From IMG/VR virus record IMGVR_UViG_3300032050_000084: a DNA stretch of 64,000 bases; one strand, given 5' to 3'. Positions 7,129-50,865 of the stretch are shown here, piece by piece. The notes under the pieces are model-generated. The model worked only from the letters and a program-made list of their open reading frames with translations, did not search any database and was not told the DNA's origin. Origin of the DNA: an uncultured virus (IMG/VR IMGVR_UViG_3300032050_000084). Lineage: Duplodnaviria; Heunggongvirae; Uroviricota; Caudoviricetes. A program made the position numbers and the translations under genes. The stretch's first letter is position 1; each line of letters begins with the position of its first letter.

Positions 7129-7143
7129 CCCGGGCCCTTTTCT
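7112..7143. terminator. Bidirectional intrinsic terminator between convergent genes
   Basis: A-tract GGCCCGG-TAAC-CCGGGCC CTTTT. Confidence 0.7.
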
Positions 7144-7675: not shown

Positions 7676-7679
7676 TCGT

Positions 7680-7850: not shown

Positions 7851-7906
7851 CTGCAACCCGATATAATATTATTTATCGAATCGTTATAGAAAATGGACTA
7901 TGATTA

Positions 7907-14572: not shown

Positions 14573-14595
14573 AAACCTATAGGAGAACAATAATC

Positions 14596-25323: not shown

Positions 25324-25689
25324 ATGGCCATAGATTTTCCAGACTCCCCCGTTCTTGATCAACAGTTCACTGTTGGTGAGACGACCTGGTATTGGAACGG
25401 CTCTGTTTGGCGCCTTCTTATTTCAGAAGGTGTTCAAGGAGATTTAGGACCTACAGGACCAGTCGGGCCGACAGGACCAACAGGACCTGGTATAACTGGT
25501 CCTACAGGACCGACAGGACCTGGAGTAACAGGACCTACAGGACCGACAGGGCCTGTATCAACTCAGCCTGGACCTACGGGAGCTACAGGACCTACAGGTC
25601 CAGAAAATGACAACGTAGATGGTGGAGCACCAAATAGCGTTTATGGCGGCGGTATTACTCTTAACGGCGGAAATGTACTAGGAGTTTAA
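25324..25689 (+). CDS. Short collagen-like virion protein
   Basis: MAIDFP.SP...W.WNGSVW N-terminus, GPT repeats, VDGG. Confidence 0.75.
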
Positions 25690-27582
25690 ATGGCAGTAAA
25701 GATTCAGTTTAGACGAGGCACTGCCTCCGAGTGGAACCTCAATAACCCAATTCTTTCACAAGGTGAAGCTGGTTGGGAAACTGATACCGGTCGCTTTAAA
25801 GTTGGTAATGGTTTAACTCCTTGGAACTCTCTTGCATATTCTTCAGGTGTTACAGGACCTACGGGATCAACACCAACAGTTTCTGTTGGTACAACAACTA
25901 CTCTTAATCCTGGATCAAATGCAACAGTAGCAAACAGTGGAACTTCTACCGCTGCAGTTTTAAATTTTGGTATTCCTATTGGTGCAACTGGACCACAAGG
26001 TGCACTTGGTCCTACAGGACCTACAGGACCTACTGGTGCGCAGGGTATAACTGGACCAACAGGTGCAGCCTCACAAGTTACTGGTCCTACAGGCCCAACT
26101 GGTCCAACAGGAGCACAAGGTGTTACCGGCCCTACTGGCGCTGATTCACAAGTTACGGGACCAACAGGTCCTACTGGACCGCAAGGAGCTCAGGGCGTTC
26201 CTATAACTCTTAAAGGAAGTGTTGCAACTGTTGCCGCACTACCATCTACAGGTAACGTACTAAATGACGCTTATATAGTTGATGAGAACGGAGATATATA
26301 CGTCTGGGACGGCTCACAGTGGTATAGCGCAGGACAGATTGTAGGAGCAACTGGCCCAACTGGTCCACAAGGAATTCAAGGTGTTACTGGACCTCAAGGA
26401 GATCTAGGGCCTACTGGACCTTCAGGGGTAATTTCAGTAACTGGTCCTATTACAAATACTGGAACAGCAATAGCTGCAGTATTAGGTCTTGACCAAAGCT
26501 TAATTGAAACAGAAAATATTACTTGGGAAGTTTACAACACCGAAGAAGATCTACCAAGCGCAACCCTTAAACACGGCATGTTTGCACATGTTCACGGCAC
26601 TGGGTATTCATATTATGCCCATGCTGGTTCTTGGGTTAAACTAGCTAAAGATTCTGACCCTAGGTTTATAGATACTCGTACTCCTACAGACGGAACAGTC
26701 ACAACTGCAAAAATTGTGGATGCAAATGTAACTAATGTTAAGCTTGAAAATAGCAGCCTTACTATTGGGTCTACTCTTGTTTCTCTTGGAGGAACAGCAA
26801 GTACTGTTGCTGGTCTTACGCTTACTTCGCCAACAATTAGCACTATCAGCAATACCGGAACCCTTACCCTACCAACTAGTACAACTACACTGTTAGGTAC
26901 GCACCAGTACACGGCAAAGGGAGATCTTCTTGCTGGAACTGCAGCTGGAACAGTGGGTATTTTATCTGCTGGAACAAATGGGTATGCTCTTACGACTAAC
27001 TCCTCAACTGCAACAGGGTTAGAATGGCTTAGCGTTGTTCCCGCTTCTTATGCCGTTTCCAACCTAAACCAGTCTGCGTCTGCTGTAGACGTATACCCTA
27101 GAATAGGAAACTCAAGCGCTGCCCTAACAAACGGCACCACATACCTATCGTTTTTCACACCGCTGTCAAACATAACAATTTCATCATTAACTGTAGTGTC
27201 TGCTAATACCGGCGCTTCCGGAACTACTCTTGCTCGTTTGGGGCTTTATACGTTTGATGGTACTACAGCTACTTTGGTAGCCAGAACTGCGTCTGACGTA
27301 ACATTGTTTGGAACTACAAATACTTTGTATAACCGGTCTTTTGACATCGTTGGTGGGTATCCCGCAAACTACACATTGCAGGCTGGACAAAGATACGCTT
27401 TAGGTATTATTTGGGTTGGGTCTACTTCCCCCACCGTCTACACTGCCTATAACTCTGTGCCCGGAATTATTAGCTCCTTATCCCCAAGAATTTCTGGAAC
27501 CGTGCCTCTTCAATCAGATTTACCACTTACATCCAATTCACTTAGCGCTACAACCGTAGCACCGTGGGGACGACTATCATGA
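25690..27582 (+). CDS. Tail fibre with Mtd_N/hyaluronidase-N-like anchor and collagen repeats
   Basis: [11 protein letters not shown]...[21 protein letters not shown]-terminus; GPT tracts. Confidence 0.8.
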
Positions 27583-27709: not shown

Positions 27710-28813
27710 ATGAAAATAGCCGTATATACAATAGCTTTAAACGAAGAGCACTTTGTAAAGAGGTGGTATGAATCCGCAAAAGAAGCAGATTATCTCCTTA
27801 TTGCTGATACTGGCTCTAGCGATGGCACCGTTGATCTTGGTCGGTCTCTTGGCATAAGCGTAATTCCTATCTCCATAAAACCTTGGAGATTTGATGATGC
27901 TAGAAACGCTTCGCTTTCATTAATTCCAGACGATATAGATTTCTGCATAGCCTTAGACATGGATGAAGTGTTGGTGTCCGGTTGGCGTAAATACTTGGAC
28001 AACATTTCAAAAGAAACAACCCGCCCTAGATATAAATATACTTGGAGTTGGAATCCGGATGGGTCGCCAGGATTAGAATACGGTGGAGATAAAATTCACG
28101 CTAGACATGGATATCGTTGGAAACATCCTGTACACGAAGTGTTGACTGCAGACCGCATAGACGAAGTACAGACTTGGATAGGATTAGAAATTCAGCACTA
28201 TCCGGATAATGAAAAACCCAGATCACAATATTTTCCACTATTAGCTCAATCAGTAAAAGAAGACCCATATGACGATAGAAATGCTTTTTATTATGCTAGA
28301 GAGTTATTTTTCTATGGACAATTTGAAGAGGCTATCGCTGAGTTTAAAAGGCACCTAAGTCTTCCAAAAGCAGTGTGGAGACCAGAACGTGCGGCATCTA
28401 TGCGCTATATTGCAAAAATGTCAGAAAACTCTGATGAGCGAGAGCAGTGGTTGCTTAAAGCCCATAATGAAGATCCCGGAAGACGGGAAGCGTTAGTAGA
28501 GCTAGCGCAGTATTACTATGAGAGAAGTATGTGGACGGCCTGCTATCAAGCAGCAACTAAGGCCATAGATATTGAGGCTAAGCCTTTGGACTATCTATGT
28601 GAAGAATTTGCCTGGGGATCGGCCCCCTGGGACTATGCAGCCATCTCCTATTACAACCTAGGAGATTTTGATAAAGCCGTTAAATATGGAGCTAAGGCCG
28701 TAGAATTGAACCCAAATGACCAACGCCTTACAGCTAATCTAGCGTTTTATTCGAAGGAGCAATCCCTTGGCAACAACATACAAGATCCTAGGGCAAGTAG
28801 CCCCGGCAGCTAA
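27710..28813 (+). CDS. GT2 glycosyltransferase with C-terminal TPR repeats
   Basis: IALNEE, IADTGSSDGT, FDDARN, LDMDE, VHE motifs; TPR-like helices. Confidence 0.88.
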   Translation: MKIAVYTIALNEEHFVKRWYESAKEADYLLIADTGSSDGTVDLGRSLGISVIPISIKPWRFDDARNASLSLIPDDIDFCIALDMDEVLVSGWRKYLDNISKETTRPRYKYTWSWNPDGSPGLEYGGDKIHARHGYRWKHPVHEVLTADRIDEVQTWIGLEIQHYPDNEKPRSQYFPLLAQSVKEDPYDDRNAFYYARELFFYGQFEEAIAEFKRHLSLPKAVWRPERAASMRYIAKMSENSDEREQWLLKAHNEDPGRREALVELAQYYYERSMWTACYQAATKAIDIEAKPLDYLCEEFAWGSAPWDYAAISYYNLGDFDKAVKYGAKAVELNPNDQRLTANLAFYSKEQSLGNNIQDPRASSPGS

Positions 28814-29108
28814 CGTATCTGGAGGTAGTCAGCTATACGCAGTACCTTCAACCGCAGGTAGTGCGGCTGTCGTATCCACCATCGTAATCTGCAACCGAGG
28901 TACGTCTGCTGCAACCTACCGCATCGCTATTCGTGAGGATAACGCTGCCTTAGATAATAAGCAGTATCTTGCTTATGACACCTCTGTACCAGCTAACACT
29001 ACAACCACGTTTACTCTGGGAGTTACACTATCTGCTTCAGATACCATTACTGTAGTAGCTTCTACAGCTAACTTAACATTCCAGGCATTCGGTTCTGAGG
29101 TAGCGTAA
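28767..29108 (+). CDS. Small virion structural protein
   Basis: AAGGAG SD + TTG; YKILGQ.AP, LYAVP..VVSTIVICN, FGSEV. Confidence 0.7.
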   Translation: MATTYKILGQVAPAANVSGGSQLYAVPSTAGSAAVVSTIVICNRGTSAATYRIAIREDNAALDNKQYLAYDTSVPANTTTTFTLGVTLSASDTITVVASTANLTFQAFGSEVA

Positions 29109-29110
29109 CC

Positions 29111-29683
29111 ATGGCTATTCAGAATAATGGTCAACCCCAGACAGGAATCGTATTTACTGACGATAAGCCGGGTCGTAGAGTATTTATAGGACCAAACACT
29201 CCCTCGGGAATTGTTGAAGGCGACATCTGGTTAGATGCTGATGCTTTTAATAATGCTGGAAAAAACTTTATTTCCGGAGTATCCCTATTAGGTTCTTCTG
29301 CAAACGTTTCAATATCTTTTACTGCATATAAAGATGTGTATGTAGTTTTTAGAAACTTGGCAGTATCTTCTAACGGAAATATAACCTTTACTCTAAATGG
29401 AAATACCACAGACTATGCCCCTACAGCCTCGTCTTTATTCTCTTTAGCAAACGTAAAAACCGGCATCACTACAAACCATTTTGAATTAGAAATCCCAGAC
29501 GTGGTAACTACAGATTTATTTCGTTGGGCATCTTTGACGGGGGTGTACACAAACGCTTCTGATGTAGTTACCGTAGTAGATTCTACATCAGCATTTAAAA
29601 ATACTGCTGCACTTACTACTTTAACCTTAACAGCCTCTAGCGGAACTTTAAGTGGTACCGCATTAGTCTATGGAGTAAATTAA
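29111..29683 (+). CDS. Hypothetical virion/fibre protein
   Basis: EGDIWLD motif; beta-rich; ends LVYGVN. Confidence 0.6.
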   Translation: MAIQNNGQPQTGIVFTDDKPGRRVFIGPNTPSGIVEGDIWLDADAFNNAGKNFISGVSLLGSSANVSISFTAYKDVYVVFRNLAVSSNGNITFTLNGNTTDYAPTASSLFSLANVKTGITTNHFELEIPDVVTTDLFRWASLTGVYTNASDVVTVVDSTSAFKNTAALTTLTLTASSGTLSGTALVYGVN

Positions 29684-29919
29684 TGGCAATTAGAAGATAT
29701 AACGCAAATACCGGACAGTGGGAACAATTTGGTAGTCCACAACTAAACCCAGCTAGCTTAGGAATTACTCCGGCATCAATTGGCGCAGTTGCTGTAAATA
29801 ACGGAACAGTTACTACAGCTAATCCTGGACAAGCTGCTGTTAGAAATACATTCGTCTCTACTAACGCCCCATCATCTGGGCAAGGTAACGACGGAGATCT
29901 CTGGGTGCAGTATATCTAA
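29683..29919 (+). CDS. Small fibre-associated protein
   Basis: Coupled start; STNAPSSGQGNDGDLWVQY motif. Confidence 0.65.
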   Translation: MAIRRYNANTGQWEQFGSPQLNPASLGITPASIGAVAVNNGTVTTANPGQAAVRNTFVSTNAPSSGQGNDGDLWVQYI

Positions 29920-31985
29920 TGCCAGGTCAAGCGAAGGTTGGCGGTACTTGGAGGACGGCGTCTCGTCTTTCAGTTAAAATAAGCGGTCAATGGAAAACCG
30001 TTACTGCTGCCTACGTTAAAGTTAATGGTCAATGGCGTCAATGGTTTGCTTCTAGAATAGAGGACACCTTTAGCAGAGCGTCTTCCGTATCATCTTTGGG
30101 AACGGCTGAAAGTGGACAAACATGGTTGTCTTTTGGTGGTGGTGTTTGGAAAGTAAATGGGTCTCAACAAGCATCATGTGATGAAAGCCCCAGCAGCAAT
30201 GCATTAACCGTAGCAGATTTATATAGCTCTAGTTTTGACGCTAGGGTAAGTACTAGCGGCGGTGTCGGGTTAGCTTTTTGGGTAACAGACTCTAATAATT
30301 GGTGGGCAGCAGTACCTAGATACTCGTTGTCTGATGGCGTATACCTATCATCTATTGATGTTATTAGAAATGTGTCGGGAACAAGATCAACGGTATATAC
30401 CGCGGTAATAAATTATAGTAGTTCTGCCTACACGTCTATAAATAGCATTTCTGTAAAATCTTTAGACGGAACGTTAAGGATAATCGCTTATTCTGATCTT
30501 TTAGCAACTACTCAATTATCAGTGCCGCTAATAGTCACTCCCCCATCTCCTGTTCAAGGTACTTATATTGGGTTAATTAAAACTTTAAGTTCTGATCAAC
30601 AGGGTAGCACTGCAGACAATATTTACATAACGTCTCCCGCAACTACCGAAGCGACTTCATCTTTTTATCAAGTCGGTACATTTCTCAATGAGTTGTATTG
30701 CAGCGGAGTAAATAGACGTCAACGTCTTGGGTACCTTCGATATAGTTCTGCAGGAGTTACTAATAATGAATTTATATTAGACAAATTAGTAGAATCTAAC
30801 TCGGTGGTATGCGGATATGTAGCTCCACCACCACCTCCGCCACCACCGCCTCCACCTCCACCGCCACCTCCTCCTCCGCCACCAGGGCCAGGAGGATGTA
30901 CTATCACTTCGTACTCAGCATGGTCATACAGCGGTATTACTTGGAGCGGTAACTGCGTTAACAACACTGAATCCGGTACAGCTACTACTAGGACTAGAAC
31001 TGATAACTGTAACAATAGTTATACTGAAACTGGTAGTTTTGCTACTGCTCGTACTTGTACTGTTCAATGTGGATCTTGTGAAACCTATACGTTTACACAA
31101 CCTACATGTAACGGGGAAGATTCCTACGTAGGAAACTACACCGGTTATAGAAGACTCTGTGATGGGGTCTATACTACTGATGGTTGTCCTGCAGCTACCC
31201 TTACGAGCTATGGTAATTGTATTGCTGTAAACGTTTCTGGTTGCGGGGGTAGTGGCGGCTCTGGAAGCAGCTGCCCTACATTAACTTGTGGCACTCAATA
31301 TGGAAGTACTCAAGGACCTGTAGGTAGCGGAAGCTGCCCTGATGGATCTTGCCCGGGATGCACTAACTATCAAACTTATTGGCCTAAGTGTTCGGATGGA
31401 ACTACAAACTATGGTAGCCCATACTATGTTGGTCTTGGTTGTAGCACTCCACCGCCACCACCTCCGCCACCACCACCCCCTCCACCTGCTCCCTGTGGGT
31501 GTAACGATTGCGGTTGCTGCGGTTTGTGTGATGAAATACCTTCAGGAACTGTATACCGAGCTGAGTGTTGCGGTAATGCCTTGCGTATAGCAAACTATAA
31601 TTGTTGTGGAAGCATATCTGGATACTCTTACGTATGTCAGGATAGTTGTACGCCACCTCCACCACCGCCTCCACCGCCACCGCCACCTCCACCTCCACCA
31701 CCTCCACCTCCACCACCTCCACCAGCGGATCCATGTAGTAATGTGAGCTGTCCGACTTGCTATGAGTGTTTCTTAGGATTTTGTGAGTTTGTTGGCTGTC
31801 CGTCAACACCTCCGCCTCCACCACCTCCGCCTCCGCCTCCACCACCACCTCCACCTCCAGGTTGTGTACCTAACCAAGGAGATATCTGTGAAGTCTACGG
31901 TTATGGCCCTGGCGGAGAGTGCGCTAGACTGGGTACCGTAAGCTGTGCAGGTAACTGTACTAACTTGGGAGGCATCGTTTGCTAA
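29919..31985 (+). CDS. Fibre-like protein with four polyproline runs and Cys-rich modules
   Basis: N-terminal KVGGTW/VKISGQW/VKVNGQW repeats; Pro runs of 20, 13, 24 and 17 residues. Confidence 0.8.
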   Translation: MPGQAKVGGTWRTASRLSVKISGQWKTVTAAYVKVNGQWRQWFASRIEDTFSRASSVSSLGTAESGQTWLSFGGGVWKVNGSQQASCDESPSSNALTVADLYSSSFDARVSTSGGVGLAFWVTDSNNWWAAVPRYSLSDGVYLSSIDVIRNVSGTRSTVYTAVINYSSSAYTSINSISVKSLDGTLRIIAYSDLLATTQLSVPLIVTPPSPVQGTYIGLIKTLSSDQQGSTADNIYITSPATTEATSSFYQVGTFLNELYCSGVNRRQRLGYLRYSSAGVTNNEFILDKLVESNSVVCGYVAPPPPPPPPPPPPPPPPPPPPGPGGCTITSYSAWSYSGITWSGNCVNNTESGTATTRTRTDNCNNSYTETGSFATARTCTVQCGSCETYTFTQPTCNGEDSYVGNYTGYRRLCDGVYTTDGCPAATLTSYGNCIAVNVSGCGGSGGSGSSCPTLTCGTQYGSTQGPVGSGSCPDGSCPGCTNYQTYWPKCSDGTTNYGSPYYVGLGCSTPPPPPPPPPPPPPAPCGCNDCGCCGLCDEIPSGTVYRAECCGNALRIANYNCCGSISGYSYVCQDSCTPPPPPPPPPPPPPPPPPPPPPPPPADPCSNVSCPTCYECFLGFCEFVGCPSTPPPPPPPPPPPPPPPPPGCVPNQGDICEVYGYGPGGECARLGTVSCAGNCTNLGGIVC

Positions 31986-32425
31986 CAAAACGATTTGCAT
32001 TTGTTGTTGAAGGCGATGTGTTCTTAACTATGGACCTACCTGATCAACCCAGCGATATTAGTACAAGAAGTTGGGACAGATGGATTGCGGCATTTAGCTC
32101 TGATCCATCAGTCATAAATATCGACCGTTACCCTAACGTGGACAAAACGTACACATATAAGGATGGAATTTTTTATTCTGACTCTGAAATGCTATATCCG
32201 GCTACAGAAGTTGAGAGCGTTTCAGAAGGTATCTGTAGGGTAGCTGTGGTTGTTGATGAGGATGTAGTAGGAACAATTACCTATGTTAAAGAGGATATGG
32301 ATCCAGAAGATTTTTATAGGATTCAGGCTGGTTTATCCTCTGATGCCCATGTATTTCCCTGCTCCCAAGAAGTTTCTATTGGTTGGGTGCATGACGGAAC
32401 CGCCTTTTTACCCCACACCAATTAA
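31979..32425 (+). CDS. Hypothetical protein with duplicated module (fibre-assembly-like)
   Basis: GGAGG SD + TTG; FAFVVEGDV...SSDP and VAVVVDEDV...SSDA...GWVHDG repeats. Confidence 0.6.
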   Translation: MLTKRFAFVVEGDVFLTMDLPDQPSDISTRSWDRWIAAFSSDPSVINIDRYPNVDKTYTYKDGIFYSDSEMLYPATEVESVSEGICRVAVVVDEDVVGTITYVKEDMDPEDFYRIQAGLSSDAHVFPCSQEVSIGWVHDGTAFLPHTN

Positions 32426-32443
32426 GTAGGGTACACTATACGC

Positions 32444-32704
32444 ATGTCTGCATGGAAAGAATATAAGCAAAAACTCCAAGATATGAAAGAAGCTCAAGGA
32501 GAAACTAGACCTTGGCAACTTTTAAATAAGGATAATTACACTACCGACGCTATAGCTGAGCTTAGGTTTAACATTTGTAGGGGCTGCGAATTTCTTACAA
32601 AATCTACAAACCAGTGTAAAAAATGCGGTTGTTTAATGCACCTAAAAACTAAATTAAAACTTGCGGAATGTCCCGTAGGAAAATGGTCTAAAACGGAAGA
32701 TTAA
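32444..32704 (+). CDS. Small Cys-rich protein, DUF6171-like
   Basis: RFNICRGC...QCKKCGC.M..K.....CP.GKW; TACACT 6 nt before ATG. Confidence 0.7.
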   Translation: MSAWKEYKQKLQDMKEAQGETRPWQLLNKDNYTTDAIAELRFNICRGCEFLTKSTNQCKKCGCLMHLKTKLKLAECPVGKWSKTED

Positions 32705-32714
32705 GAGGGCTAAA

Positions 32715-33275
32715 ATGTTTAATCCAAAAGTAGTATCAAATTTTTTATCTAAAGAAGATTGCGAATACGTAGTAACCACCGTATCTAAAGTAGATACTTG
32801 GGAGGGTGCGGGCAATGATTTTTGGTCTAATAGGGCTTTAGGACTTCCCAACCTTAGAAAAAACATAGACCCTAAAGTTGCAGATATTGTTGCCGAAGCC
32901 ACCATAAAAGTTAAAAACGCTATTATGTTTGAGTACGGCCTAGACAAAGAAGTTTACGCAGATCTTACTCAAATTATTCGTTGGTTTCCCGGAATGGAGC
33001 AACCCCCTCACGCAGACGACATGACTAATACAGAACATAGAGGTTTTGAGCATAGGGTATTTGGAGCGATAATTTATTTAAACGATAACTATTCTGGGGG
33101 TCATACGTACTACCCGGAGCATAATTTTGAGGTTATACCAAAAGCTGGAAACTTAGCTATACATCCTGGTGATCCTGAACATCTTCATGGCGTAACTAAA
33201 ATAGAAGATAGCACTAGGTACACGATTGCTTCTTTTTGGACTTTTGATAAATCTAAAGAGTATGCGTTGTACTAA
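32715..33275 (+). CDS. 2OG-Fe(II) oxygenase, prolyl-4-hydroxylase-like
   Basis: HAD, IIYLNDNYSGG, PKAG, HGV...RYT facial triad and 2OG-binding Arg. Confidence 0.88.
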   Translation: MFNPKVVSNFLSKEDCEYVVTTVSKVDTWEGAGNDFWSNRALGLPNLRKNIDPKVADIVAEATIKVKNAIMFEYGLDKEVYADLTQIIRWFPGMEQPPHADDMTNTEHRGFEHRVFGAIIYLNDNYSGGHTYYPEHNFEVIPKAGNLAIHPGDPEHLHGVTKIEDSTRYTIASFWTFDKSKEYALY

Positions 33276-34168
33276 TGCATGAAAAAATACTTATTTCTGT
33301 CCCTTCATATAGAGAAATAGAATTAGAACACACTGTTCGTTCTTTTTATGAAGACGCTAAGTATAAAGATCGTATCTTATTCTCTGTAGTATCTCAAGAC
33401 TACGAGCATCCAGATCTTTCATTTATACCTACTTTAAATTTAAGATATCTAAAAGTAAATCCAAAAGAAACTTACGGCGTAACTTGGGCGCGATCTTTAT
33501 CAACCGCCATGTTTAGCGATTACGATTATGTTCTTCAGATAGACGCACACATGTTTTCTGTAAAAAATTGGGATGTCGACATAATAAATGTATATAAAAA
33601 AGCAAAAGAAAAATTCAATTCCCCAGTAGTTTTGAGCGCATACCCCGCGATGTATAGACTATATTCCAATGGAAACAGAGAAACAGGACCGGTTTTACGT
33701 ATGTCCCACGCCGTATTAGAAGGTGCCCAGTTTAGAAATTGGCCTAGTCATAAAGAAGCCGAAGACTTAACAGAACACCACTATATACATGGAGCTTGCG
33801 TTTTTTCTGAAAAAGAGTTTTTGTTAAAAGTGCCTCAAGACCCAGAATTAGATTTTTTTTGTGATGAGATGTGTTTAAGTATTAGGGCTTTTTATCACGG
33901 CTACCCAATAGTTTTTTTTAATAACCCGGTATTTTTTCATTTTTACTCGCAAGATAGAATAGCTATACAAAGTAACGTAAAGCCGTGGAATGATGGCCAC
34001 CCCAAATTAGACATGTTAAATGATACCTCTAGGGGAAACAAATTTATACGCGGAGAGCTTGAAGGTTTTTATGGTGTCCCTAAAAAAACTATAGATGAGT
34101 TTTGTAAATTAACCGGGTATATAGTTCCTTTAAACATAAGCAAAATAGGGGTGCCAACTCATGATTAA
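33275..34168 (+). CDS. GT60/Gnt1-like (hydroxyproline) GlcNAc transferase
   Basis: ILISVPSYRE..L..T...AK, G..WAR, YVLQIDAH.F...WD, VLSAYP motifs of the Skp1 GlcNAc-transferase family. Confidence 0.78.
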   Translation: MHEKILISVPSYREIELEHTVRSFYEDAKYKDRILFSVVSQDYEHPDLSFIPTLNLRYLKVNPKETYGVTWARSLSTAMFSDYDYVLQIDAHMFSVKNWDVDIINVYKKAKEKFNSPVVLSAYPAMYRLYSNGNRETGPVLRMSHAVLEGAQFRNWPSHKEAEDLTEHHYIHGACVFSEKEFLLKVPQDPELDFFCDEMCLSIRAFYHGYPIVFFNNPVFFHFYSQDRIAIQSNVKPWNDGHPKLDMLNDTSRGNKFIRGELEGFYGVPKKTIDEFCKLTGYIVPLNISKIGVPTHD

Positions 34169-34895
34169 TAAAGACACTTTTGTTCCAAAACAAACGTTAG
34201 TTGTCGTACCACAACCAGGGATAGACAAAAAGGATATTGATAAGCTTTTAATACCTCTGACAGAAATTAAAAAAAGAGATTGGTTTACTTCTCACTTTTA
34301 CTATTGCCTTCCGCTGTCTATAGGAAATGTTTATGGGTTTATAGTAAGAGCTGAACGAGACGTAACTGTTCATTGGAATGGGGACGACTCTATACATGGC
34401 CTTATAATAAATCAAAAACATGAAGACGCTAGATGTCAACGATTTGATGGTCATTTTGGTTCTGGAATATTAACAATTCAAAACTTATGGCATTATCGAA
34501 CTCCGCCAGGAATAAATTTAATGACTATAACCCCACCTAATTTTCCTCAACACGGGCTTATGCATATGACTGGGGTAATAGAGACTGATAATCTTAGTCG
34601 TGATTTTACCTTTAATTTAAAAGTCACCAAACCTAATATCTATGTGACTATAAAGGCAGGAGATCCTATTGGAGCTTTTATACCAATACCTAGATATTTT
34701 GCAGATCGTTTTACCATCAAATATGCAGACGAACTGTTTACCCCTGAAGAGATTGAGTTAGAGTACAAAGCCGGGACCGAATTAGCTAGGCAACGGCAAC
34801 AAGAGGACATGCTAAAGCCCCACTCAGCCGGAAGAAAATATTTTAGGGGTAGGGATGCCTGGGATAACCCTTTTATTGATCATCAAAAGAAGTAG
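34161..34895 (+). CDS. DUF6065-like protein
   Basis: RDWF...YCLPL..GN.YG, HFGSGILT, RTPPG, PPN, GVIETD, FTFN.K motifs. Confidence 0.7.
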   Translation: MINKDTFVPKQTLVVVPQPGIDKKDIDKLLIPLTEIKKRDWFTSHFYYCLPLSIGNVYGFIVRAERDVTVHWNGDDSIHGLIINQKHEDARCQRFDGHFGSGILTIQNLWHYRTPPGINLMTITPPNFPQHGLMHMTGVIETDNLSRDFTFNLKVTKPNIYVTIKAGDPIGAFIPIPRYFADRFTIKYADELFTPEEIELEYKAGTELARQRQQEDMLKPHSAGRKYFRGRDAWDNPFIDHQKK

Positions 34896-34942
34896 GTTTT
34901 GTAAACCCTATAGGTTAGGTCTTTTAGGGATATACTCTCTAT

Positions 34943-35560
34943 ATGCGTGGAGAACGAGTCGAAGGTTCCAGATTTACGATCAATCATGAACGTGGATCGA
35001 TTATTAAGGGCACCACAAAAGAAATAGTACGTACCGTAGGCTATGACTTAGAGTGGTGGCTTTATGACCCTGTTGCTACTGTTGTTGACCCCATATACGA
35101 CGTTGGAGCTAATACTGGGGGACGTCGTTGGGTTGGCCCATACCACATTCCCGTTATTAACGCTACCTTGACACAAGGCAGTACGGTGCCTAGTGACCGT
35201 GGTTTCTACAACACCGACGTTTTAAATATAACAATAAATATGGATATAGCAGAAGGCAGCTCGCTATCAACTAGTGAGACGTTGCTTATCCCAGAATTAA
35301 GAGCCCTACCTACAAACCCAGATGCTTTTTTAAGAGATCGCGTTGTATTTAAGAACCAGGTATTTAGCCCTAGACAGGTACTACCTAAGGGGATTATTAC
35401 TAATGACTACACCTTATTTTCTGTAGTCTGCTACCAGGTAAACGCTGAAGAGCTTATTAATGACCCACAGTTTGCAGAGTACGCGACCTACACTCCATTT
35501 GGTCCTAGAGATAGATACTCATTCTATGAGGATCCTGAAGGAACTGTGCCAGGTATTTAA
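34943..35560 (+). CDS. Putative head-closure/neck protein
   Basis: Position before tail genes; DPIYD...RGFY..D.L..DRVVF.N.VF. Confidence 0.5.
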   Translation: MRGERVEGSRFTINHERGSIIKGTTKEIVRTVGYDLEWWLYDPVATVVDPIYDVGANTGGRRWVGPYHIPVINATLTQGSTVPSDRGFYNTDVLNITINMDIAEGSSLSTSETLLIPELRALPTNPDAFLRDRVVFKNQVFSPRQVLPKGIITNDYTLFSVVCYQVNAEELINDPQFAEYATYTPFGPRDRYSFYEDPEGTVPGI

Positions 35561-35697
35561 TGCCCTTTAAATCCGAAGCTCAGCGTAAATGGATGTATGC
35601 TAATGACCCTAAAATGGCTGAAAAGTGGGGGGGTGAAACCCCTAAGGGTAAGAAGCTCCCTAAGAAAGTGAAGAAAAAAAGTGGCAAAAAGCGATAA
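35560..35697 (+). CDS. Small basic protein (45 aa, not in track)
   Basis: TAATG coupling; MPFKSEAQRKWMYAN.P.MA..W...TPKGKKLP. Confidence 0.7.
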   Translation: MPFKSEAQRKWMYANDPKMAEKWGGETPKGKKLPKKVKKKSGKKR

Positions 35698-35851
35698 GCC
35701 TGTTTGGGATAAAAAAGATCCTACTCCGGGTAAATCAAAGAAACTTAGCAAGAAGCAAAAGGCTTCTGCTAGGGCTAGGGCTCGGGCAGCAGGCCGTCCC
35801 TATCCTAACCTCGTAGACAATATGGCTGCTGCCAGAAAGAAGAAAAAATAA
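35681..35851 (+). CDS. Small basic protein (56 aa, not in track)
   Basis: GTG start; ...KASARARARAAGRPYPNLVDNMAAARKKKK; stop overlaps the next ATG. Confidence 0.65.
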   Translation: MAKSDKPVWDKKDPTPGKSKKLSKKQKASARARARAAGRPYPNLVDNMAAARKKKK

Positions 35852-35922
35852 TGTGCGCTGGATGTGGATGCAAAAAAGGTAAGTGCAAAACCAAAGCTTG
35901 CAAGTGCAAGTGCTGTAAGTAG
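35851..35922 (+). CDS. 23 aa Cys/Lys-rich metallothionein-like peptide (not in track)
   Basis: MCAGCGCKKGKCKTKACKCKCCK; TAATG coupling. Confidence 0.55.
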   Translation: MCAGCGCKKGKCKTKACKCKCCK

Positions 35923-35928
35923 GCCGAC

Positions 35929-36060
35929 ATGTGTGCAACTTGCGGATGTATGCGCCCCAAAGATAAGCACGGCGAGAAGACTCTAACCGCTGCCAACAAG
36001 AAGTATGCTAGTACTAAGAAGAAGGCTGCCAGTAAAAAGGCTGCCAAGAAAGGGAAATAA
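35929..36060 (+). CDS. Small basic protein with MCATCGC N-terminus (43 aa, not in track)
   Basis: Open frame; stop overlaps the next ATG. Confidence 0.6.
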   Translation: MCATCGCMRPKDKHGEKTLTAANKKYASTKKKAASKKAAKKGK

Positions 36061-36203
36061 TGGCGCTAAAAGGTGGACAGAAAAAACTCGATGCCAACAA
36101 GAACAATAAGGTTGACAGCGGTGACTTTGCTATTCTCCGTAAAAAGGGTAGCTCTAAAGCACAAGGTAAAAAGCAAGCCATGCCTCGTAAGAAAGGCATG
36201 TAA
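36060..36203 (+). CDS. Small basic protein with an EF-hand-like loop (47 aa, not in track)
   Basis: LDANKNNKVDSGDFAIL; TAATG coupling on both sides. Confidence 0.65.
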   Translation: MALKGGQKKLDANKNNKVDSGDFAILRKKGSSKAQGKKQAMPRKKGM

Positions 36204-36490
36204 TGTCTAGAAAGCGGCTTCCCTATAACAAGAAAAATGACAAAAAGCAGGACGCCAAAACTACTAAAGGAATGTCCAAAGAAGAAAAAGAAGAGTTTGA
36301 AAAATTGGACACAGCCCATGGGAAGCGTAATAAGCCTGAGAGTCAAACCGCAGACCGTAAGATCGATGAGCGTCTAAAAAAGAAGGCTGAAAAGAAAGTC
36401 GAAAAACGCCATGAAGCCAAGGAAGGCAAAAAGGGCGAGCGCGAAGAAGAGAAGCGGGAACATAAGAAAAAGAAGCACAAAAAGAAGTAA
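36203..36490 (+). CDS. Highly charged small protein
   Basis: 95 aa Lys/Glu-rich, coupled start. Confidence 0.65.
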   Translation: MSRKRLPYNKKNDKKQDAKTTKGMSKEEKEEFEKLDTAHGKRNKPESQTADRKIDERLKKKAEKKVEKRHEAKEGKKGEREEEKREHKKKKHKKK

Positions 36491-40745: not shown

Positions 40746-40908
40746 AGAGCTTAGCTACGAAAATTTAATTATTTCATTAGATTACCTAGCACAGTTTTAT
40801 CCTGGGTGGTCTTTGACAGAGTTAAAAGGGCTTAGCTTGCGAGAACGTATGATCTGGTTGGACAGAGCAATTAGTAGACCTAGGGGTGGAAGCATTGGCA
40901 AGTTATGA
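40738..40908 (+). CDS. Startless +1-frame extension of the tail chaperone (gpGT-like)
   Basis: Open frame ...YPGWSLTELKGLSLRERMIWL... with no good start; overlaps TTT CAG TAA. Confidence 0.6.
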   Translation, partial: FSKELSYENLIISLDYLAQFYPGWSLTELKGLSLRERMIWLDRAISRPRGGSIGKL

Positions 40909-43900
40909 AAACTTGATGCCTGCTGGCGACGATAATATCGTTGGCGGGATGACTTCTGGTGTCGATAAACTATTTACAAAGATGGACAAAGGCCAAAAGC
41001 AAATGCTTAAGGTCTTTAAAGAAGTTGAAAAAGTTACCGAGAAGATAAAGAAAAATATGGAAGCCGCCAATGGCGGTAAATCATCCTCGGGAATGTCTAG
41101 CTCTTTGGGTGCTATGCCCACGTTTGGAGCTTCACGGGCAGCAACTATTGCAGGTAGGGTAGGGCTAGGAACTGCAGCTGTAGGCGCTATTGGTATGGGC
41201 ATGATGCCAAACACAAGCGCTGCTGTTACACAACGTTTAGGTGCAGATGCTGTAGCAGGTATTAGTGGTCTTAATTCTCGTCAAGTAATATTAAGATCTA
41301 ACAATGCGGTAGGTGGCGGAGCAACTAGCGCTATGGGTCCAACCATGGCGGCCATGTCCCTTATGTACAGTGGTGGCTATACAGCTAATAGCGGCACCTT
41401 TAGAAATGTTATGCCACAAGTTGGTGGCTTAAGTGCATTAACTGGCGGCACCAACGAACAGATGGCGCAAGGATTAGCCGGCATAAATGCTATGCGGTTC
41501 CTTCGCATAGGTGTTCAAGCTCGTGATACTAAAGGAAACTTACGACCACCTAATGCAATTATTAACGACACGTATAGATTTTTATACGGTGGGCGAAAAG
41601 TAACTCCAGAACAAGCCGCTTTAGTTCTTAATCCAGGATCTAAAGGCTATGCAACTATTCAAGCTATTGCTGGTGGAGATCAAAACCTTGCTGGAATTAT
41701 CCAAATGGGAATCATTGCTCGTGCAAAGAAAGACAGCCCTCTAAAAAAAGAAGACCTTAAAGGGTCAAACCGAGCACTAGATCTTTTGGGTGTTGGTCAA
41801 GAAAGCCCTATGCGAACTAACTTCCGCTACAACACTAGCGAAGCTCGTAAGCTACAGGCTACAGAAAAAGGTTTAGTAGGCGGATACAACGTAGCTATGA
41901 GAACAACAGCTGCGGTTAACGATGGTTTTAGCAAGCTAGCAGAAGAGGCTGCAGGCGTTGCAAATGCATTGGGAACACTACGTGGCGTACTCCAAACATT
42001 ACCTGCAGCAGGAAATACCGGAGCTACTCTAACTGGTGTAGCCGGTACTGCAGCAAGTGTAGGAATGAATATGTACATGCTTTCTAAGATGCGTGGACTT
42101 TATGCAGCGGGAACTGCCGGTGCTGCAGCAGCTACGGGAGGCGTTACTGCTGGTGGTGCAGCTGCAGCAGCAGGAGCTACCGGTGCAGCAGGATACTTAG
42201 CAAAAGCAAAAGGTTTATTTAAGGGCGGATTTAAAAGTCCTTTTGTAAAAGGATTAGGAAGAGCTGGACTTGCACTTGGCGTATATCAAGGCATGGAGTT
42301 TTTACAAAAGAGGATGCAGGTGGGTCCTGGCTGGCTTCGTGCTGGCGGTAACTTTATGTTTGATTTAGGCCAGGGTGCGTTAACTGGTTTAGCTGCTGGC
42401 GGTATACCTGGAGCAGTTGCAGGAACTGTGGCTGGTGGAGTGGGATCAATAGCAAATCCTTACGGACAAGGTGGCGACTGCACTCACGGAAATGTTGGGC
42501 CACATAAGTGTGGTGTTGGTGGAGACAACAGCACAAGTATGCAGAATATGCCTGCCGGATCTATGTCTGCTCCACAAAAAGGATTTACAACAGGTAAGGG
42601 TCCGGGCAATCAAGACACTAAAGGTCAAATATTTGGTATGCCTGTCCCGGCAGGTACTAGAGTTACTTCTCATTACGGTCCTCGAGATAACTCAAAGAAC
42701 CCACAAATTTCTGCATACCACAGGGGTATTGACTACGGTGTACAAGTAGGTACTCCAATTGTTGCAGCAGCTAACGGTACGGTTACACATGCCGGAACAC
42801 ATAGGCAATACGGATACTACATAATTCTAAATCACGGAAAAAAGAGCACTCTTTACGGACACTTAAGCCAAATTTTAGTAAAGGTTGGGCAGCAAGTAAA
42901 CAAAGGCGATGTAATCGCAAAGTCTGGTGGTAAGAGGGGTGCCCCTGGAGCAGGTACTTCTACAGGTCCTCACCTTCACTTTGAGCTTAGAGATCCTGGC
43001 GGAGTTGGAGCACAAGGGCGAGTAAACCCTAAGAGTTTCTTTGGTAAATTAGTAAGTAGTGTTAAGAGCGCTGTAAGCAACATCTTTGGTGCTGTAAAGG
43101 GATTTCTAGGAATAGGTAAAGAAAAAGAAGACATTAAAAGCAAAACTATTCGTAACTCTGGAGAGGGGCTGCGTTTTGAAGGAACGCTGTCTAACCTAAG
43201 CAGCGTGCCATTAAGTGAGTCTTTAAGCAGCTCTATGATGTCTGGAGCCCCAGTAAACTTTGCTGATTTCCAAAGAGAGTTTCCAGCAGATGATATTGAA
43301 CAAGGCATAAGATTTGGAAAATCTGGTGGGAAACATTTCTTAAACAACACCATAGATAAAGTGTCTGGTGACAGTGGGTCCATGGTTGGGGGAAGTAGAA
43401 AAGGACTAATTCAGTTCTTACACAATATTGGTTTTAGAGGAAAAGCTTTAGATACTGCGTTTGCTGTTGCATTGGCAGAATCTGGTGGTAATTCTGGAAC
43501 TATCAATAAGCGTAGTAAGGATTATGGCCTATTCCAGATCAATATGGATGGCAAAAACTATGACGATAGAATAAAGAAAGAGTGGAACTATCACGGTACC
43601 AAGTTTAAATTAAAAGGGCTTGGTGATCTTTTAAATCCCACAACTAATGCCAAAGTTGCATATCACATGACGAACAAAGGAAGAAACTGGATTAGGTGGG
43701 TATCCCACAATACAGGTGACTATACCAAGTTCTTAGATGATGCAGTTATGGCTAGAGAACAAGCAGGTATAGGTGGAGACAACCCTGCAACTGCTGGCAT
43801 GGCTATGGAAACTACAGGTGCAGCGGGATACAGAAGATCTGGATCTATATCTGGATCAGTGACTAGTAATCAAACAATAAACGTAAAGGTAGACTTACAG

Positions 43901-44005
43901 CTTAAGGTAGATAAGTTAGGTAGTGCAGAGATTACCAGAGTTGCTTCTAGCTTAAAGAAGGCTATCAATGATGAGTTTAAGGTGAATGGACTGGGAGTTA
44001 ACTAA
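40886..44005 (+). CDS. Tape-measure-like protein with M23 peptidase and lysozyme-like domains
   Basis: Gly/Ala-rich helical N-half; HRGID, YGHL, TGPHLHFE; AVALAESGG...YGLFQIN; true start may be TTG 40895. Confidence 0.85.
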   Translation: MEALASYENLMPAGDDNIVGGMTSGVDKLFTKMDKGQKQMLKVFKEVEKVTEKIKKNMEAANGGKSSSGMSSSLGAMPTFGASRAATIAGRVGLGTAAVGAIGMGMMPNTSAAVTQRLGADAVAGISGLNSRQVILRSNNAVGGGATSAMGPTMAAMSLMYSGGYTANSGTFRNVMPQVGGLSALTGGTNEQMAQGLAGINAMRFLRIGVQARDTKGNLRPPNAIINDTYRFLYGGRKVTPEQAALVLNPGSKGYATIQAIAGGDQNLAGIIQMGIIARAKKDSPLKKEDLKGSNRALDLLGVGQESPMRTNFRYNTSEARKLQATEKGLVGGYNVAMRTTAAVNDGFSKLAEEAAGVANALGTLRGVLQTLPAAGNTGATLTGVAGTAASVGMNMYMLSKMRGLYAAGTAGAAAATGGVTAGGAAAAAGATGAAGYLAKAKGLFKGGFKSPFVKGLGRAGLALGVYQGMEFLQKRMQVGPGWLRAGGNFMFDLGQGALTGLAAGGIPGAVAGTVAGGVGSIANPYGQGGDCTHGNVGPHKCGVGGDNSTSMQNMPAGSMSAPQKGFTTGKGPGNQDTKGQIFGMPVPAGTRVTSHYGPRDNSKNPQISAYHRGIDYGVQVGTPIVAAANGTVTHAGTHRQYGYYIILNHGKKSTLYGHLSQILVKVGQQVNKGDVIAKSGGKRGAPGAGTSTGPHLHFELRDPGGVGAQGRVNPKSFFGKLVSSVKSAVSNIFGAVKGFLGIGKEKEDIKSKTIRNSGEGLRFEGTLSNLSSVPLSESLSSSMMSGAPVNFADFQREFPADDIEQGIRFGKSGGKHFLNNTIDKVSGDSGSMVGGSRKGLIQFLHNIGFRGKALDTAFAVALAESGGNSGTINKRSKDYGLFQINMDGKNYDDRIKKEWNYHGTKFKLKGLGDLLNPTTNAKVAYHMTNKGRNWIRWVSHNTGDYTKFLDDAVMAREQAGIGGDNPATAGMAMETTGAAGYRRSGSISGSVTSNQTINVKVDLQLKVDKLGSAEITRVASSLKKAINDEFKVNGLGVN

Positions 44006-45858: not shown

Positions 45859-46145
45859 GTAACATAACGCGTCGTTCTAGATACTTTACTGGGCCTTTAG
45901 CTCAGCTTGAAAATAAATCTACAGGCAACTATGACATTGCTGTTTACAGAGAGTTTGAAGAGCTAGGTAACATTAGTTTCTTTGATTACACCTGGGTGTT
46001 TGGAGATAGCCTAGGAGCCTTAGCCGATAAGCATCTGCTTAACTCGGTGCTGTGGTGGAAGATACTGGAGATAAACCCGACAATAACAGACCCGTTTGAT
46101 ATTGAGCCAGGAACCGTTATTAGGATCCCGTATGTCAATAGATAA
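45855..46145 (+). CDS. LysM-like baseplate protein (gpX-like)
   Basis: GDSL..LA...L....WW.I...NP.I.DP..I.PG..IRIP. Confidence 0.8.
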   Translation: MSNITRRSRYFTGPLAQLENKSTGNYDIAVYREFEELGNISFFDYTWVFGDSLGALADKHLLNSVLWWKILEINPTITDPFDIEPGTVIRIPYVNR

Positions 46146-46983
46146 CCTATCCACGGCTTCAGAGGTCTTTCAATTTGAGTCCTCGGCTTCTCCTTGGCTT
46201 TCAGATTTCTCTGTAAAATTTCCAAAGACTCCAGAGCTTGACCTAATACTTATAAGCGCAGATCTTTATCAAGAACAAGAAGCACACGATATCTTAGTTC
46301 TTACCTTTAAAGGTAAGTCTGAAGCCGATAACATCAGCATTGTATCTTCTGATCCAGTAGAGTTTAAATATGATAGCGCAGGAACAAACTCTACATTCCA
46401 AGGATACGTCTATCAAATAAACCCGGTGTCAACAGTAAAAGCACACGTTACTGAGATATGGTGCGTATCTGCATCAGCAGTGCTAAAAGACAGTGATCAA
46501 GTTGTATTTAAAAAAGTAACGGCTGATCAGGTGATAACAAAAATTGCTAAGAAAAGGGGCATGACCGCCGTAACTCAACGGCATCCCCGCCTACGAGAAT
46601 CTATTGTCCAAGCTGGACAAACCGATTGGCAAATAATGAGACGCCTTGCAAAGCAAACCGGTTTTGCTTTAAGAACAGAAAACACCACCGTATTTTTTGT
46701 ATCTAAAGATAAAATTTATCAGGATAAAAAAGCTAAAGCTCCATACTTTAGATACGTAGATGGATTAACAAAAGAAGAACGACAAGTTGGTACTTGCTTT
46801 AGATTTACTCCAAATCTTTCTGACGATTCATTAGAAACCGGAGTACGTGTAGATCGAGTAATGACCGGCACTAATGCCTCTTCCGGAGGAATCATATCTA
46901 CTAGCCACGCTACAAAAGATTATGCTGGAAAAGAAAGTTTAGGAAAAGTAGTACCAAGCAAGGAGTACTTTGATGCCATCTAA
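46132..46983 (+). CDS. Baseplate hub protein, N-terminal part (gpD/VgrG-like)
   Basis: TFQGYV, TADQV..KIAK..G, QAGQTDWQ..RRLAK..G. Confidence 0.7.
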   Translation: MSIDNLSTASEVFQFESSASPWLSDFSVKFPKTPELDLILISADLYQEQEAHDILVLTFKGKSEADNISIVSSDPVEFKYDSAGTNSTFQGYVYQINPVSTVKAHVTEIWCVSASAVLKDSDQVVFKKVTADQVITKIAKKRGMTAVTQRHPRLRESIVQAGQTDWQIMRRLAKQTGFALRTENTTVFFVSKDKIYQDKKAKAPYFRYVDGLTKEERQVGTCFRFTPNLSDDSLETGVRVDRVMTGTNASSGGIISTSHATKDYAGKESLGKVVPSKEYFDAI

Positions 46984-50305: not shown

Positions 50306-50318
50306 AAAAGGAAAAATA

Positions 50319-50861: not shown

Positions 50862-50865
50862 CTAA

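Follow-up and report, generated by a model that had tools for sequence, protein, structure and literature searches.

O-glycosylation of hydroxyproline (Hyp) is regarded as a eukaryotic trait, found in plants, in algae and on the Skp1 protein of protists. In the Skp1 pathway of Dictyostelium and Toxoplasma, the prolyl 4-hydroxylase (P4H) type oxygenase PhyA acts in the cytoplasm and hydroxylates its target in an O2-dependent reaction, and the PF11397/GT60 enzyme Gnt1 then places a sugar on the new hydroxyl group. The plant systems employ secretory-pathway P4Hs together with arabinosyl and galactosyl transferases of other glycosyltransferase (GT) families. Among viral enzymes, vCPH of PBCV-1 reportedly hydroxylates proline-rich repeats of viral proteins as well as poly-L-proline. 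Here we describe a locus of the uncultured freshwater virus IMGVR_UViG_3300032050_000084 (Caudoviricetes), at which a P4H-type oxygenase and a PF11397 glycosyltransferase are encoded next to a protein with long polyproline runs. It occupies positions 29919-34895 of a stretch of 64,000 nucleotides, hereafter the window, which is part of a virus record of 104,454 bp (CheckV completeness 100%) in which 100% of the words sampled from the window recur. The data incline us to read this gene cassette as a tailoring system, in which proline-rich spacers of the neighbouring structural protein are first hydroxylated and afterwards given a sugar.

The cassette comprises four genes (DUF6171, P4H, GT60-like GT and DUF6065), separated in this order by 10 nt, by a 1-nt overlap (TAATG) and by an 8-nt overlap. 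An earlier annotation made from the letters of the DNA alone (the sequence-only reading) had proposed these four families, all of which lie above their Pfam cut-offs, and had given coordinates for the four genes and the proline-rich gene which agree with those in Table 1. The overlap of the P4H stop with the GT start was correctly described there, as were the GT motifs discussed below. The oxygenase and PF11397 pair occurs once in the 104-kb record.

The oxygenase is predicted to be prolyl-hydroxylase-like by both sequence and fold. Its PF13640 score is 36.6 bits in a six-frame search of the genome. The iron triad H99-x-D101...H158 and R168, the basic residue for the C5 carboxylate of 2-oxoglutarate (2OG), are together invariant in 31 sequences. 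The AlphaFold2 (AF2) model (predicted local distance difference test, pLDDT, 92.1) displays a double-stranded beta-helix that is nearest to known prolyl hydroxylases. Foldseek places human collagen prolyl 3-hydroxylase P3H1 at the top (E 4e-11, TMq 0.77), followed in order of E-value by the P4H of B. anthracis, vCPH of PBCV-1, PHD2, a Chlamydomonas P4H and C-P4H-II; the lysyl hydroxylase LH3 appears only at rank 44. The comparison with vCPH (5c5t) gives TM scores of 0.69/0.71 at a sequence identity of about 15-16%. The best sequence matches in the PDB are prolyl hydroxylases as well, and the best PHROG match is phrog_2297 (E 9e-20), which is filed under 'DNA endonuclease'. The suspected kinship with P4Hc enzymes is thus backed by the PF13640 assignment and by fold matches to prolyl hydroxylases.

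The neighbouring GT aligns with residues 55-251 to positions 98-294 of the 352 positions of the PF11397 profile. This is the sole Pfam family at E <= 0.01, with no GT2 family at that threshold, which favours GT60 over GT2, and it is the single PF11397 match in the record. The motifs SYRE, GVTWAR, QIDAH...WD and LSAYP are present in the translation. Within QIDAH, which contains a putative metal-binding DxH motif of the GT-A type and of the kind that Gnt1 uses, D90 and H92 are invariant in 10 sequences. Searches of the PDB by sequence and profile returned no solved relative of the GT, and tblastn against GenBank phages found just 4 jumbo phages, at 23-25.5% identity. A DNA search of GenBank phages with the whole region gave zero matches. 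Among 8 ORFs (open reading frames) compared with NCBIfam, none scored above cut-off, the best being a FlmC oxygenase model with 18.8 bits (cut-off 240).

The remaining two cassette proteins are less readily placed. The Cys-rich DUF6171 protein carries the motif CxxC...CxxCxC...CP, matches phrog_13558 (E 2.7e-15) and has its closest relatives in Atlas clusters that are 96-100% viral; as a guess, it may be a metal or redox partner of the oxygenase. The AF2 model of the DUF6065 protein (pLDDT 81.7) shows a dUTPase-like beta fold of the jelly-roll type with a C-terminal helix. VIA-align superposes it on the dUTPase of equine infectious anaemia virus (EIAV) with Z 10.4 and a root-mean-square deviation of 3.0 over 111 aligned residues, and each of the 14 chains that score Z >= 8 is a dUTPase or a viral protein related to dUTPases. 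Foldseek likewise indicates a dUTPase/dCTP-deaminase-like fold (E 6e-4), and a PDB sequence search gave nothing usable and no dUTPase. A three-copy model reached ipSAE 0.48, against 0.01 for the best control, with contacts agreeing to at least 66% between runs and a partner pLDDT of at least 69; 20 of 30 solved homomers attained this mark in calibration, as did 1 of 23 monomers. The DUF6065 protein is accordingly modelled as a homo-oligomer of dUTPase-like fold, and its trimer-model pass may reflect resemblance to solved dUTPase trimers. A role as a helper that handles uridine nucleotides is a guess.

The proposed substrate consists of an N-terminal domain of about 300 amino acids, followed by Cys-rich modules which are spaced by four polyproline runs. 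It contains 98 prolines and 45 cysteines in total, and 74 of the prolines fall into the four pure runs (20+13+24+17); the sequence-only reading had also counted 74 in four runs. A threonine precedes three of the four runs. The protein is conserved in four related loci (L003, L007, L008 and L010), where the run lengths differ in frame. Lengths of 20/13/24/17, 20/13/24/11 and 14+7/13/24/11 are found among near-identical genomes, such that run 4 is polymorphic (17 or 11), and a 3-nt deletion at 31839, within run 4, in contigs of two RNA-library runs agrees with this in-frame polymorphism. Since CCA, CCT and CCG codons are mixed within the runs and the run lengths vary in frame, selection acts on the protein and not on a DNA repeat. 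PHROG matches are confined to the N-terminus and concern PHROGs of unassigned function; look-ups in the Atlas returned viral hypothetical clusters only, and a weak hint there of a ConA-like/3-keto-disaccharide-hydrolase fold in the N-terminal 300 amino acids is regarded as a lead only. The place of the gene in the structural module suggests that the protein is located on the virion. Between this gene and DUF6171 lies a small ORF of 148 amino acids which has no match in Pfam, PHROG or NCBIfam. Homologues in matching position are present in four related loci (L091, L118, L124 and L156), and from its position we would guess a fibre chaperone or assembly factor.

A scan with an alignment of the P4H retrieved 146 viral stretches. 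Eighty loci were retained from these, and 79 of them fall into 37 lineages at 90% P4H identity. Their common gene order is Pro-rich ORF, small ORF, DUF6171, 0 to 4 variable genes, P4H and DUF6065. An ORF was counted as Pro-rich if it lies on the same strand at most 4.5 kb upstream and either contains >= 12% P or has a P run >= 6, and lineages with at least 3 kb of upstream sequence were considered. Such an ORF precedes the P4H in 22 of the 27 lineages with sufficient flank, and 12 of the 22 have P runs >= 6, the longest with 49 consecutive prolines. As controls, none was seen downstream of the P4H (0/20) or around GT60 genes of the island type described below (0/44 and 0/47), which yields a Fisher p <= 1e-8 when lineages are treated as independent, which they are not fully. 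DUF6171, the conserved first gene of the cassette, is found in 36 of the 37 lineages. The outer flanks are not conserved, and orf205, the gene after the cassette, recurs in only 3/37. The Pro-rich ORFs themselves are mosaics: BLAST sorts them into 10 groups, their N-terminal domains differ, and they carry small Cys knots at the C-terminus, with spacers of the types (VTPP)n, (TTPPP)n, (IIATPPP)n, (VVPP)n and Pn. As a separate observation, two loci (L093:3504-4358 and L153:3465-4328) encode a radical SAM/SPASM enzyme right after DUF6171; together with the small Cys-knot ends of the Pro-rich proteins, this may point to a cross-linking of the fibre tip resembling that of ribosomally synthesized and post-translationally modified peptides (RiPPs).

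The GT is the part of the cassette that varies. With a hidden Markov model (HMM) of GT61-like proteins, built from six ORFs and applied to the 37 lineages, 11 lineages are seen to carry GT60 and 14 a GT61-like gene; no lineage has both (0) and 12 have neither, where the chance of zero overlap is 0.0016. The GT60 gene takes one of three positions: before the P4H, after DUF6065 or, like that of the window, in between. Pfam annotation of 43 ORFs from 12 loci identified Glyco_transf_61, radical SAM/SPASM, cupins, extra PF13640 domains, UDP-glucose dehydrogenase and NAD epimerase/dehydratase, and the GT families are only PF11397 and PF04577. In a quick tree (Shimodaira-Hasegawa-like approximate likelihood ratio test, SH-aLRT, only; midpoint root; three long branches), the GT60s of the cassettes split into at least 2 separate clades. 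From the variation of the slot, the position of the GT and these clades we therefore derive a conserved core, which is Pro-rich ORF, DUF6171, P4H and DUF6065, and a GT that appears to be an interchangeable accessory, recruited more than once. The proposed co-occurrence of P4H, GT60 and polyproline genes across phages hence stands for the P4H and the Pro-rich ORF, and fails to extend to GT60, which is limited to 11/37 lineages.

The two enzyme families also meet outside of this phage group. A profile of the GT homologues finds 5585 clusters at 50% identity, so the PF11397-like family is large, and the list of matches is led by long proteins that carry PF11397 domains in tandem, two to four each. 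Among 41 large PF11397 proteins scanned, an oxygenase domain of PF13640/PF13661 occurs in 14, of which at least two are bacterial, and AhpC/TSA in 9. The window P4H matches the fused domains directly (P0025 E 1.5e-12, P0032 9e-11, P0023 5e-7, P0010 3e-5). In the large proteins P0010-P0038, several of which are bacterial, chains of up to 2461 amino acids join as many as four PF11397 domains in tandem with AhpC/TSA and with one or two oxygenase domains of the P4H type. Examples are a GT60 and oxygenase protein of 645 amino acids from a Cyanobium metagenome-assembled genome (MAG) (L172, 6755-8692), a protein of 1936 amino acids with 4 GT60 domains and matches to PF13640 and PF13661 from a Rickettsiales MAG (L182, 5105-10915), and P0024 from an Alphaproteobacteria MAG; for one fused relative, the source gives the label Tpa1-like Rps23 prolyl dihydroxylase/peroxiredoxin. 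Searches of the large fusion proteins with the window queries identified no DUF6171 and no DUF6065. Judged from domain content, the fusions appear to link the GT60 and P4H-type families independently of the phage, and their recurrence in bacteria points to an unstudied protein-modification pathway.

From the observed gene families, folds and catalytic residues, the tight packing, the conserved block, the interchangeable GT slot and the GT60-oxygenase fusions, we infer both reactions, their substrate, the sugar, the acceptor atom and the virion location as follows. In the 688-aa protein, polyproline spacers would keep the Cys-rich modules at a distance from each other. With O2, 2OG and Fe(II), the P4H-type oxygenase would hydroxylate prolines of these spacers inside the infected cell, and the PF11397/GT60 enzyme would then attach a sugar to the new hydroxyl, presumably N-acetylglucosamine (GlcNAc) from UDP-GlcNAc by analogy with the family. 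The virion would thereby gain a stiff polyproline-II rod that is glycosylated and resists proteases, akin to a hydroxyproline-rich glycoprotein of plants or algae. DUF6171 and DUF6065, as constant companions of the oxygenase, may assist in the helper roles guessed above.

Table 1. Features of the region 29919-34895 and of the surrounding structural module (positions in the window)
Feature	Position	Strand	Remark
Cys-rich structural-module protein, 688 aa	29919-31985	+	proposed substrate
Polyproline run 1, 20 P	30825-30884	+	starts at residue 303
Polyproline run 2, 13 P	31449-31487	+	starts at residue 511
Polyproline run 3, 24 P	31653-31724	+	starts at residue 579
Polyproline run 4, 17 P	31809-31859	+	starts at residue 631
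Small conserved ORF, 148 aa, start codon uncertain	31979-32425	+	between Pro-rich gene and DUF6171
DUF6171 protein, 86 aa, Cys-rich	32444-32704	+	PF19668, 32.4 bits (cut-off 27)
P4H-type 2OG/Fe(II) oxygenase, 186 aa	32715-33275	+	PF13640 (2OG-FeII_Oxy_3), 35.4 bits (cut-off 27)
PF11397 (GlcNAc / GT60-like) glycosyltransferase, 297 aa	33275-34168	+	98.5 bits (cut-off 21), E 7e-28
DUF6065 protein, 244 aa	34161-34895	+	PF19541, 127.8 bits (cut-off 26.6)
Motif AACCCTATAGG	34904-34914	+	exact copy in the 47-nt gap after the cassette
Terminase	8660	+	structural module
Portal	10822	+	structural module
Major head protein	13455	+	structural module
Collagen-like fibre proteins	16174-18378, 25324-25689, 25690-27582	+	structural module
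Tail sheath	37738	+	structural module
Tube	39281	+	structural module
Tape measure	40886	+	structural module
Baseplate	46096-53508	+	structural module

Pfam and PHROG annotation of the window ORFs identifies a structural module of the myovirus type on the + strand around the cassette (Table 1). The region 29919-34895 is located between the fibre genes and the tail sheath, that is, in the late structural module and 20 kb away from the replication genes. The GC content is 0.36-0.39 at 32-35 kb and about 0.43 for the window, which bears out the earlier remark that the cassette is AT-richer. The same reading had given the cassette a promoter of its own, with one -10 element at 32432 and another just after it at 34931. 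The hexamers TACACT and TATACT do exist at these positions; a sigma-70-type scan found no + strand promoter at either of them, and sigma-70-type sites are overall rarer than in shuffled sequence (6 versus a mean of 15). Because all genes from 28767 to 34895 are separated by at most 18 nt or overlap, a private promoter is unsupported. The motif AACCCTATAGG occurs exactly at 10309 and 34904, with 1 mismatch at 14573 and with 2 mismatches at 25305; each of these four sites lies shortly upstream of a + strand gene and two overlap the ribosome-binding site. With up to 2 mismatches there are 32 matches, compared to 18.9 expected and 29 in the largest shuffle, and the copy after the cassette may mark a transcription or regulatory boundary. 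Contigs from RNA libraries, in which DNA carry-over is possible and a contig does not prove a single transcript, cover the Pro-rich gene in 4 runs (4 studies) and lend weak support to the proposed role of the cassette. One contig, 31851-33479, extends from the 3' end of the Pro-rich gene through orf148, DUF6171 and P4H into GT60; the segment 33606-34339, which takes in the larger part of GT60 and the beginning of DUF6065, is without cover in the four runs, a lack that carries no evidential weight.

Several points weigh against the proposed sequence of hydroxylation and glycosylation of the spacers. Five of the 27 lineages have no Pro-rich ORF upstream of the P4H, and all 37 lineages form one phage group (P4H 52-100% identical), such that the association may be partly inherited gene order. 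The close homologue clusters of GT60 (9) are far fewer than those of P4H (396) or DUF6065 (803), and glycosylation is not obligatory, because 12/37 lineages have neither GT. The viral GT60 relatives (150 stretches, 80 kept) form 5 groups at 60% identity, the largest of which (68 loci) consists of multi-GT islands of another phage type (WhiB, Pyr_excise, GT1/GT4, GT25, methyltransferases). Across the 71 GT60-centred loci outside the cassette lineages, zero ORFs with a P run >= 6 were found and only 3 loci have a match to the P4H HMM; GT60 as such is hence not tied to proline hydroxylation. Of 28 bacterial GT60 loci, only 2 have an ORF with a P run, and the one at L172 is spurious, because it is a high-GC gene read in an alternative frame. 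The dUTPase-like fold of DUF6065 is not accounted for by the model. Known GT60 and GT61 enzymes include Ser/Thr-directed members, and Thr rather than Hyp could be the acceptor of the sugar. Two thoughts on the islands were given up: phmmer showed the island GT60 genes to be part of a different multi-GT island and not relatives of the cassette, for which reason they were used as the control above, and a link of DUF6065 to GT60 without P4H was dropped, with a DUF6065-like ORF in 5/71 island loci and adjacent in 1 (HMM). The islands (L012-L082, e.g. L023, L059, L068) also carry Gb3_synth-like, RXYLT1-like and JmjC genes, and L059 holds two GT60 copies.

The question of the acceptor leads to the alternative that the oxygenase hydroxylates the Pro-rich protein and the GT, in a parallel step, places its sugar on Thr or Ser (in the manner of mucins or 'PT linkers') or on another protein. 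A trypanosome GlcNAc transferase of GT60 is directed to Thr, EOGT of GT61 acts on Ser/Thr, and PT linkers of bacterial cellulases are O-glycosylated. The spacers contain 10-31% Thr in most of the related lineages, as in (VTPP)n, (TTPPP)n and (IIATPPP)n, and Thr stands before three of the four runs of the window. Moreover, the GT is optional and interchangeable and the P4H constant, and the GT60 genes of the other phage group work without a nearby P4H. On the other hand, the spacers of the window (3% Thr), L125 (0%) and L153 (1%) are nearly devoid of Ser and Thr, yet all three retain a GT, and because of this a sugar on the spacer would need Hyp in these cases. The fusions of GT60 with oxygenases and the at least two recruitments of GT60 into a P4H cassette also suggest one shared pathway, and we therefore hold the parallel arrangement to be improbable, if the best of the alternatives. 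It seems less probable still that the cassette targets the translation machinery or host proteins (prolyl hydroxylation of EF-Tu or uS12; elongation factor EF-P), either aiding polyproline synthesis or retuning the host. Runs of 13-49 consecutive prolines are hard to translate, as is known from work on EF-P, and a role of this kind would explain the co-location with polyproline genes equally well; a bacterial P4H that modifies EF-Tu (5v7y) is among the fold matches, and the Tpa1-like label of the fused relative points in the same direction. Many relatives, however, possess only PP pairs, e.g. (VTPP)n, and would need little help, the changing set of GT families and sugar-nucleotide enzymes resembles a diversification of surface glycans, and the cassette sits in the late structural module. 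The EF-P glycosyltransferase EarP is of another family and fold. An Ofd1-like prolyl dihydroxylase was present in a virion preparation of a cyanomyovirus and was judged non-structural (PMC12801897), which would suit a target in translation.

A hydroxylase could also serve the collagen-like fibres, with the polyproline gene incidental. The window encodes three such proteins, the best fold match of the oxygenase is a collagen prolyl 3-hydroxylase, and collagen-like matches lie at most 7 kb from the cassette in several related loci; collagen hydroxylation is also offered as a likely role of viral P4Hs, whose use is termed 'cryptic', in a virome study (PMC9301287). Within the 187 Gly-X-Y triplets of the three proteins, however, Pro is at X in 97 and at Y in 3, with Thr as the dominant Y residue, such that the X-Pro-Gly target of collagen P4Hs is almost absent. 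The fibres are poor targets because of this placement of Pro, and were rejected as the main target. The conserved neighbour of the P4H is moreover a non-collagen Pro-rich ORF (22/27), and the collagen-fibre query matched only a minority of the related loci, which leaves this explanation very unlikely. Even less credit is due to the idea that the genes modify DNA or nucleotides, the oxygenase, the GT and the dUTPase-like protein together yielding a hydroxylated and glycosylated base similar to base J or glucosyl-hydroxymethylcytosine. The logic of an oxygenase plus a GT is known for DNA, and the oxygenase has its best PHROG match under 'DNA endonuclease'; still, DNA modification fits only the dUTPase/dCTP-deaminase-like fold of DUF6065. 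The oxygenase belongs to PF13640, its listed fold matches are all protein hydroxylases with no TET/JBP or AlkB among them, and the cassette belongs to the structural module, with the replication genes 20 kb away and a Pro-rich gene as conserved neighbour; to our knowledge, PF11397 enzymes are known only as protein glycosyltransferases. We grant the same very slight chance to the absence of any functional link, in which case an AT-rich mobile insert (a moron, or 'auxiliary metabolic genes') would by chance have landed behind a fast-evolving fibre gene, where insertions are tolerated. Ends of fibre genes are common insertion sites in phages, and both the GC content of the cassette (0.36-0.39 versus about 0.43) and the highly variable content of the slot agree with an insert. 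Against it, DUF6171, P4H and DUF6065 stay beside Pro-rich ORFs of unrelated N-terminal architecture while the flanks change, and the control variable islands are without Pro-rich ORFs.

Some further observations concern the neighbourhood of the cassette. The collagen-like proteins of the window are closer to bacterial GPT collagen-like proteins than to animal collagen. Directly 3' of the collagen-like gene 25690-27582, a second glycosyltransferase gene (27710-28813, +) encodes a GT2-like N-terminal domain and TPR repeats; its product matches phrog_13126 'beta-1,4-glycosyltransferase' (E 4e-118) and, weakly and below cut-off, PF23558 (P4H peptide-substrate-binding TPR, 22.7 bits). The preceding fibre gene is rich in Gly-Pro-Thr triplets, and the two genes may form a separate fibre-glycosylation pair. 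The segment 35560-36750 has an AT skew of 0.32 and contains only short, extremely Lys-rich ORFs (35681-35851, 36203-36490), with RNA-library contigs covering 35127-36487. A gap of about 1.8 kb (6550-8140) ahead of the ORF at 8142 is without a + strand ORF of at least 100 amino acids. The tape-measure-like protein (40886-44005, +) includes a peptidase/endolysin-like domain at about residues 575-730 (several PHROG matches, E down to 7e-25).

The earlier interpretation of the region as a hydroxyproline glycosylation system is thus partly supported, and its scope has widened considerably. If hydroxylation and glycosylation of the spacers take place as proposed, a cassette of substrate plus enzymes brings Hyp O-glycosylation into the prokaryotic virosphere, and its parts can be tested in E. 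coli. The cassette gives the viral P4H a concrete, testable role, DUF6171 and DUF6065 gain a context, and the interchangeable GT slot suggests a glycan-based diversification of the fibre with relevance to host range and to evasion of proteases and defence. A bolder version, possible in our view and rather less than probable, is that a large freshwater phage group makes hydroxyproline-rich glycoproteins, as polyproline-II rods of the virion fibres, by P4H action and subsequent Hyp O-glycosylation by interchangeable GT60 or GT61 enzymes, with DUF6171 and DUF6065 as obligatory helpers. This would entail oxygen-dependent, serotype-like variation of the fibre, and PhyA and Gnt1 would belong to a much older toolkit of prokaryotes and phages, of which the bacterial GT60-oxygenase fusions would be another sign. 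A literature search of titles and abstracts found no phage prolyl hydroxylase coupled to glycosylation, and no paper on DUF6065 or DUF6171. According to a study of the Baltic virome, P4HA is among the most widespread viral 'AMGs' (auxiliary metabolic genes), present at 62% of stations, and its use 'remains cryptic' (PMC9301287). The bolder version, if true, would account for the standing of P4HA and sugar-nucleotide genes as some of the commonest so-called auxiliary metabolic genes in aquatic viromes.

Compared with the described systems, the locus shares with the Skp1 pathway a P4H-type oxygenase and a PF11397/GT60 enzyme. None of the window ORFs scanned matches a family of Skp1, the target within the SCF ubiquitin ligase, however, and as part of a phage of prokaryotes the locus is an analogue of that pathway and not a member. 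Skp1 is modified at a single target proline, whereas the window offers a repetitive Pro-rich structural protein with tens of proposed sites, and the sugars that are added later to the Skp1 glycan are without a counterpart in the window. The large PF11397 fusions with AhpC/TSA and PF13640 share both enzyme families with the window in one chain; they differ by up to four tandem GT domains, by sizes of up to 2461 amino acids and by the lack of any Pro-rich neighbour in the loci searched. The window oxygenase resembles vCPH of PBCV-1 as a small P4H encoded by a virus, but PBCV-1 infects a eukaryotic algal host, and we know of no GT60, DUF6171 or DUF6065 beside vCPH. Mimivirus L230, a collagen lysyl hydroxylase/glucosyltransferase, and animal LH3 couple or even fuse a 2OG hydroxylase with a glycosyltransferase, by which a repetitive structural protein is first hydroxylated and then glycosylated. 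Unlike the proposed window enzymes, they act on collagen Lys instead of Pro, with other GT domains and in eukaryotic hosts. Mycobacteriophages are said to encode glycosyltransferases beside structural genes that decorate virion proteins (work attributed to Freeman and colleagues, 2023); these reportedly belong to other GT families, act on Ser/Thr-rich C-terminal extensions of capsid and tail-tube proteins and involve neither hydroxylase nor polyproline.

In its expected product, the locus resembles extensins and the mastigoneme of Chlamydomonas, in which long polyproline-II segments are hydroxylated and O-glycosylated and form stiff rods (PMC11015965). The phage spacers (Pn, VTPP, TTPPP) resemble such plant and algal hydroxyproline-rich glycoproteins in composition. 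The Ser-(Hyp)3-5 unit of extensins is absent, with pure Pn in the window and VTPP, TTPPP or IIATPPP in its relatives, and in place of plant-type Hyp arabinosyltransferases the cassettes contain only GT60 or GT61-like enzymes, which would have to act in the bacterial cytoplasm. The cassette would represent a known type of system, protein glycosylation coupled to hydroxylation, in an unexpected setting of virus and host.

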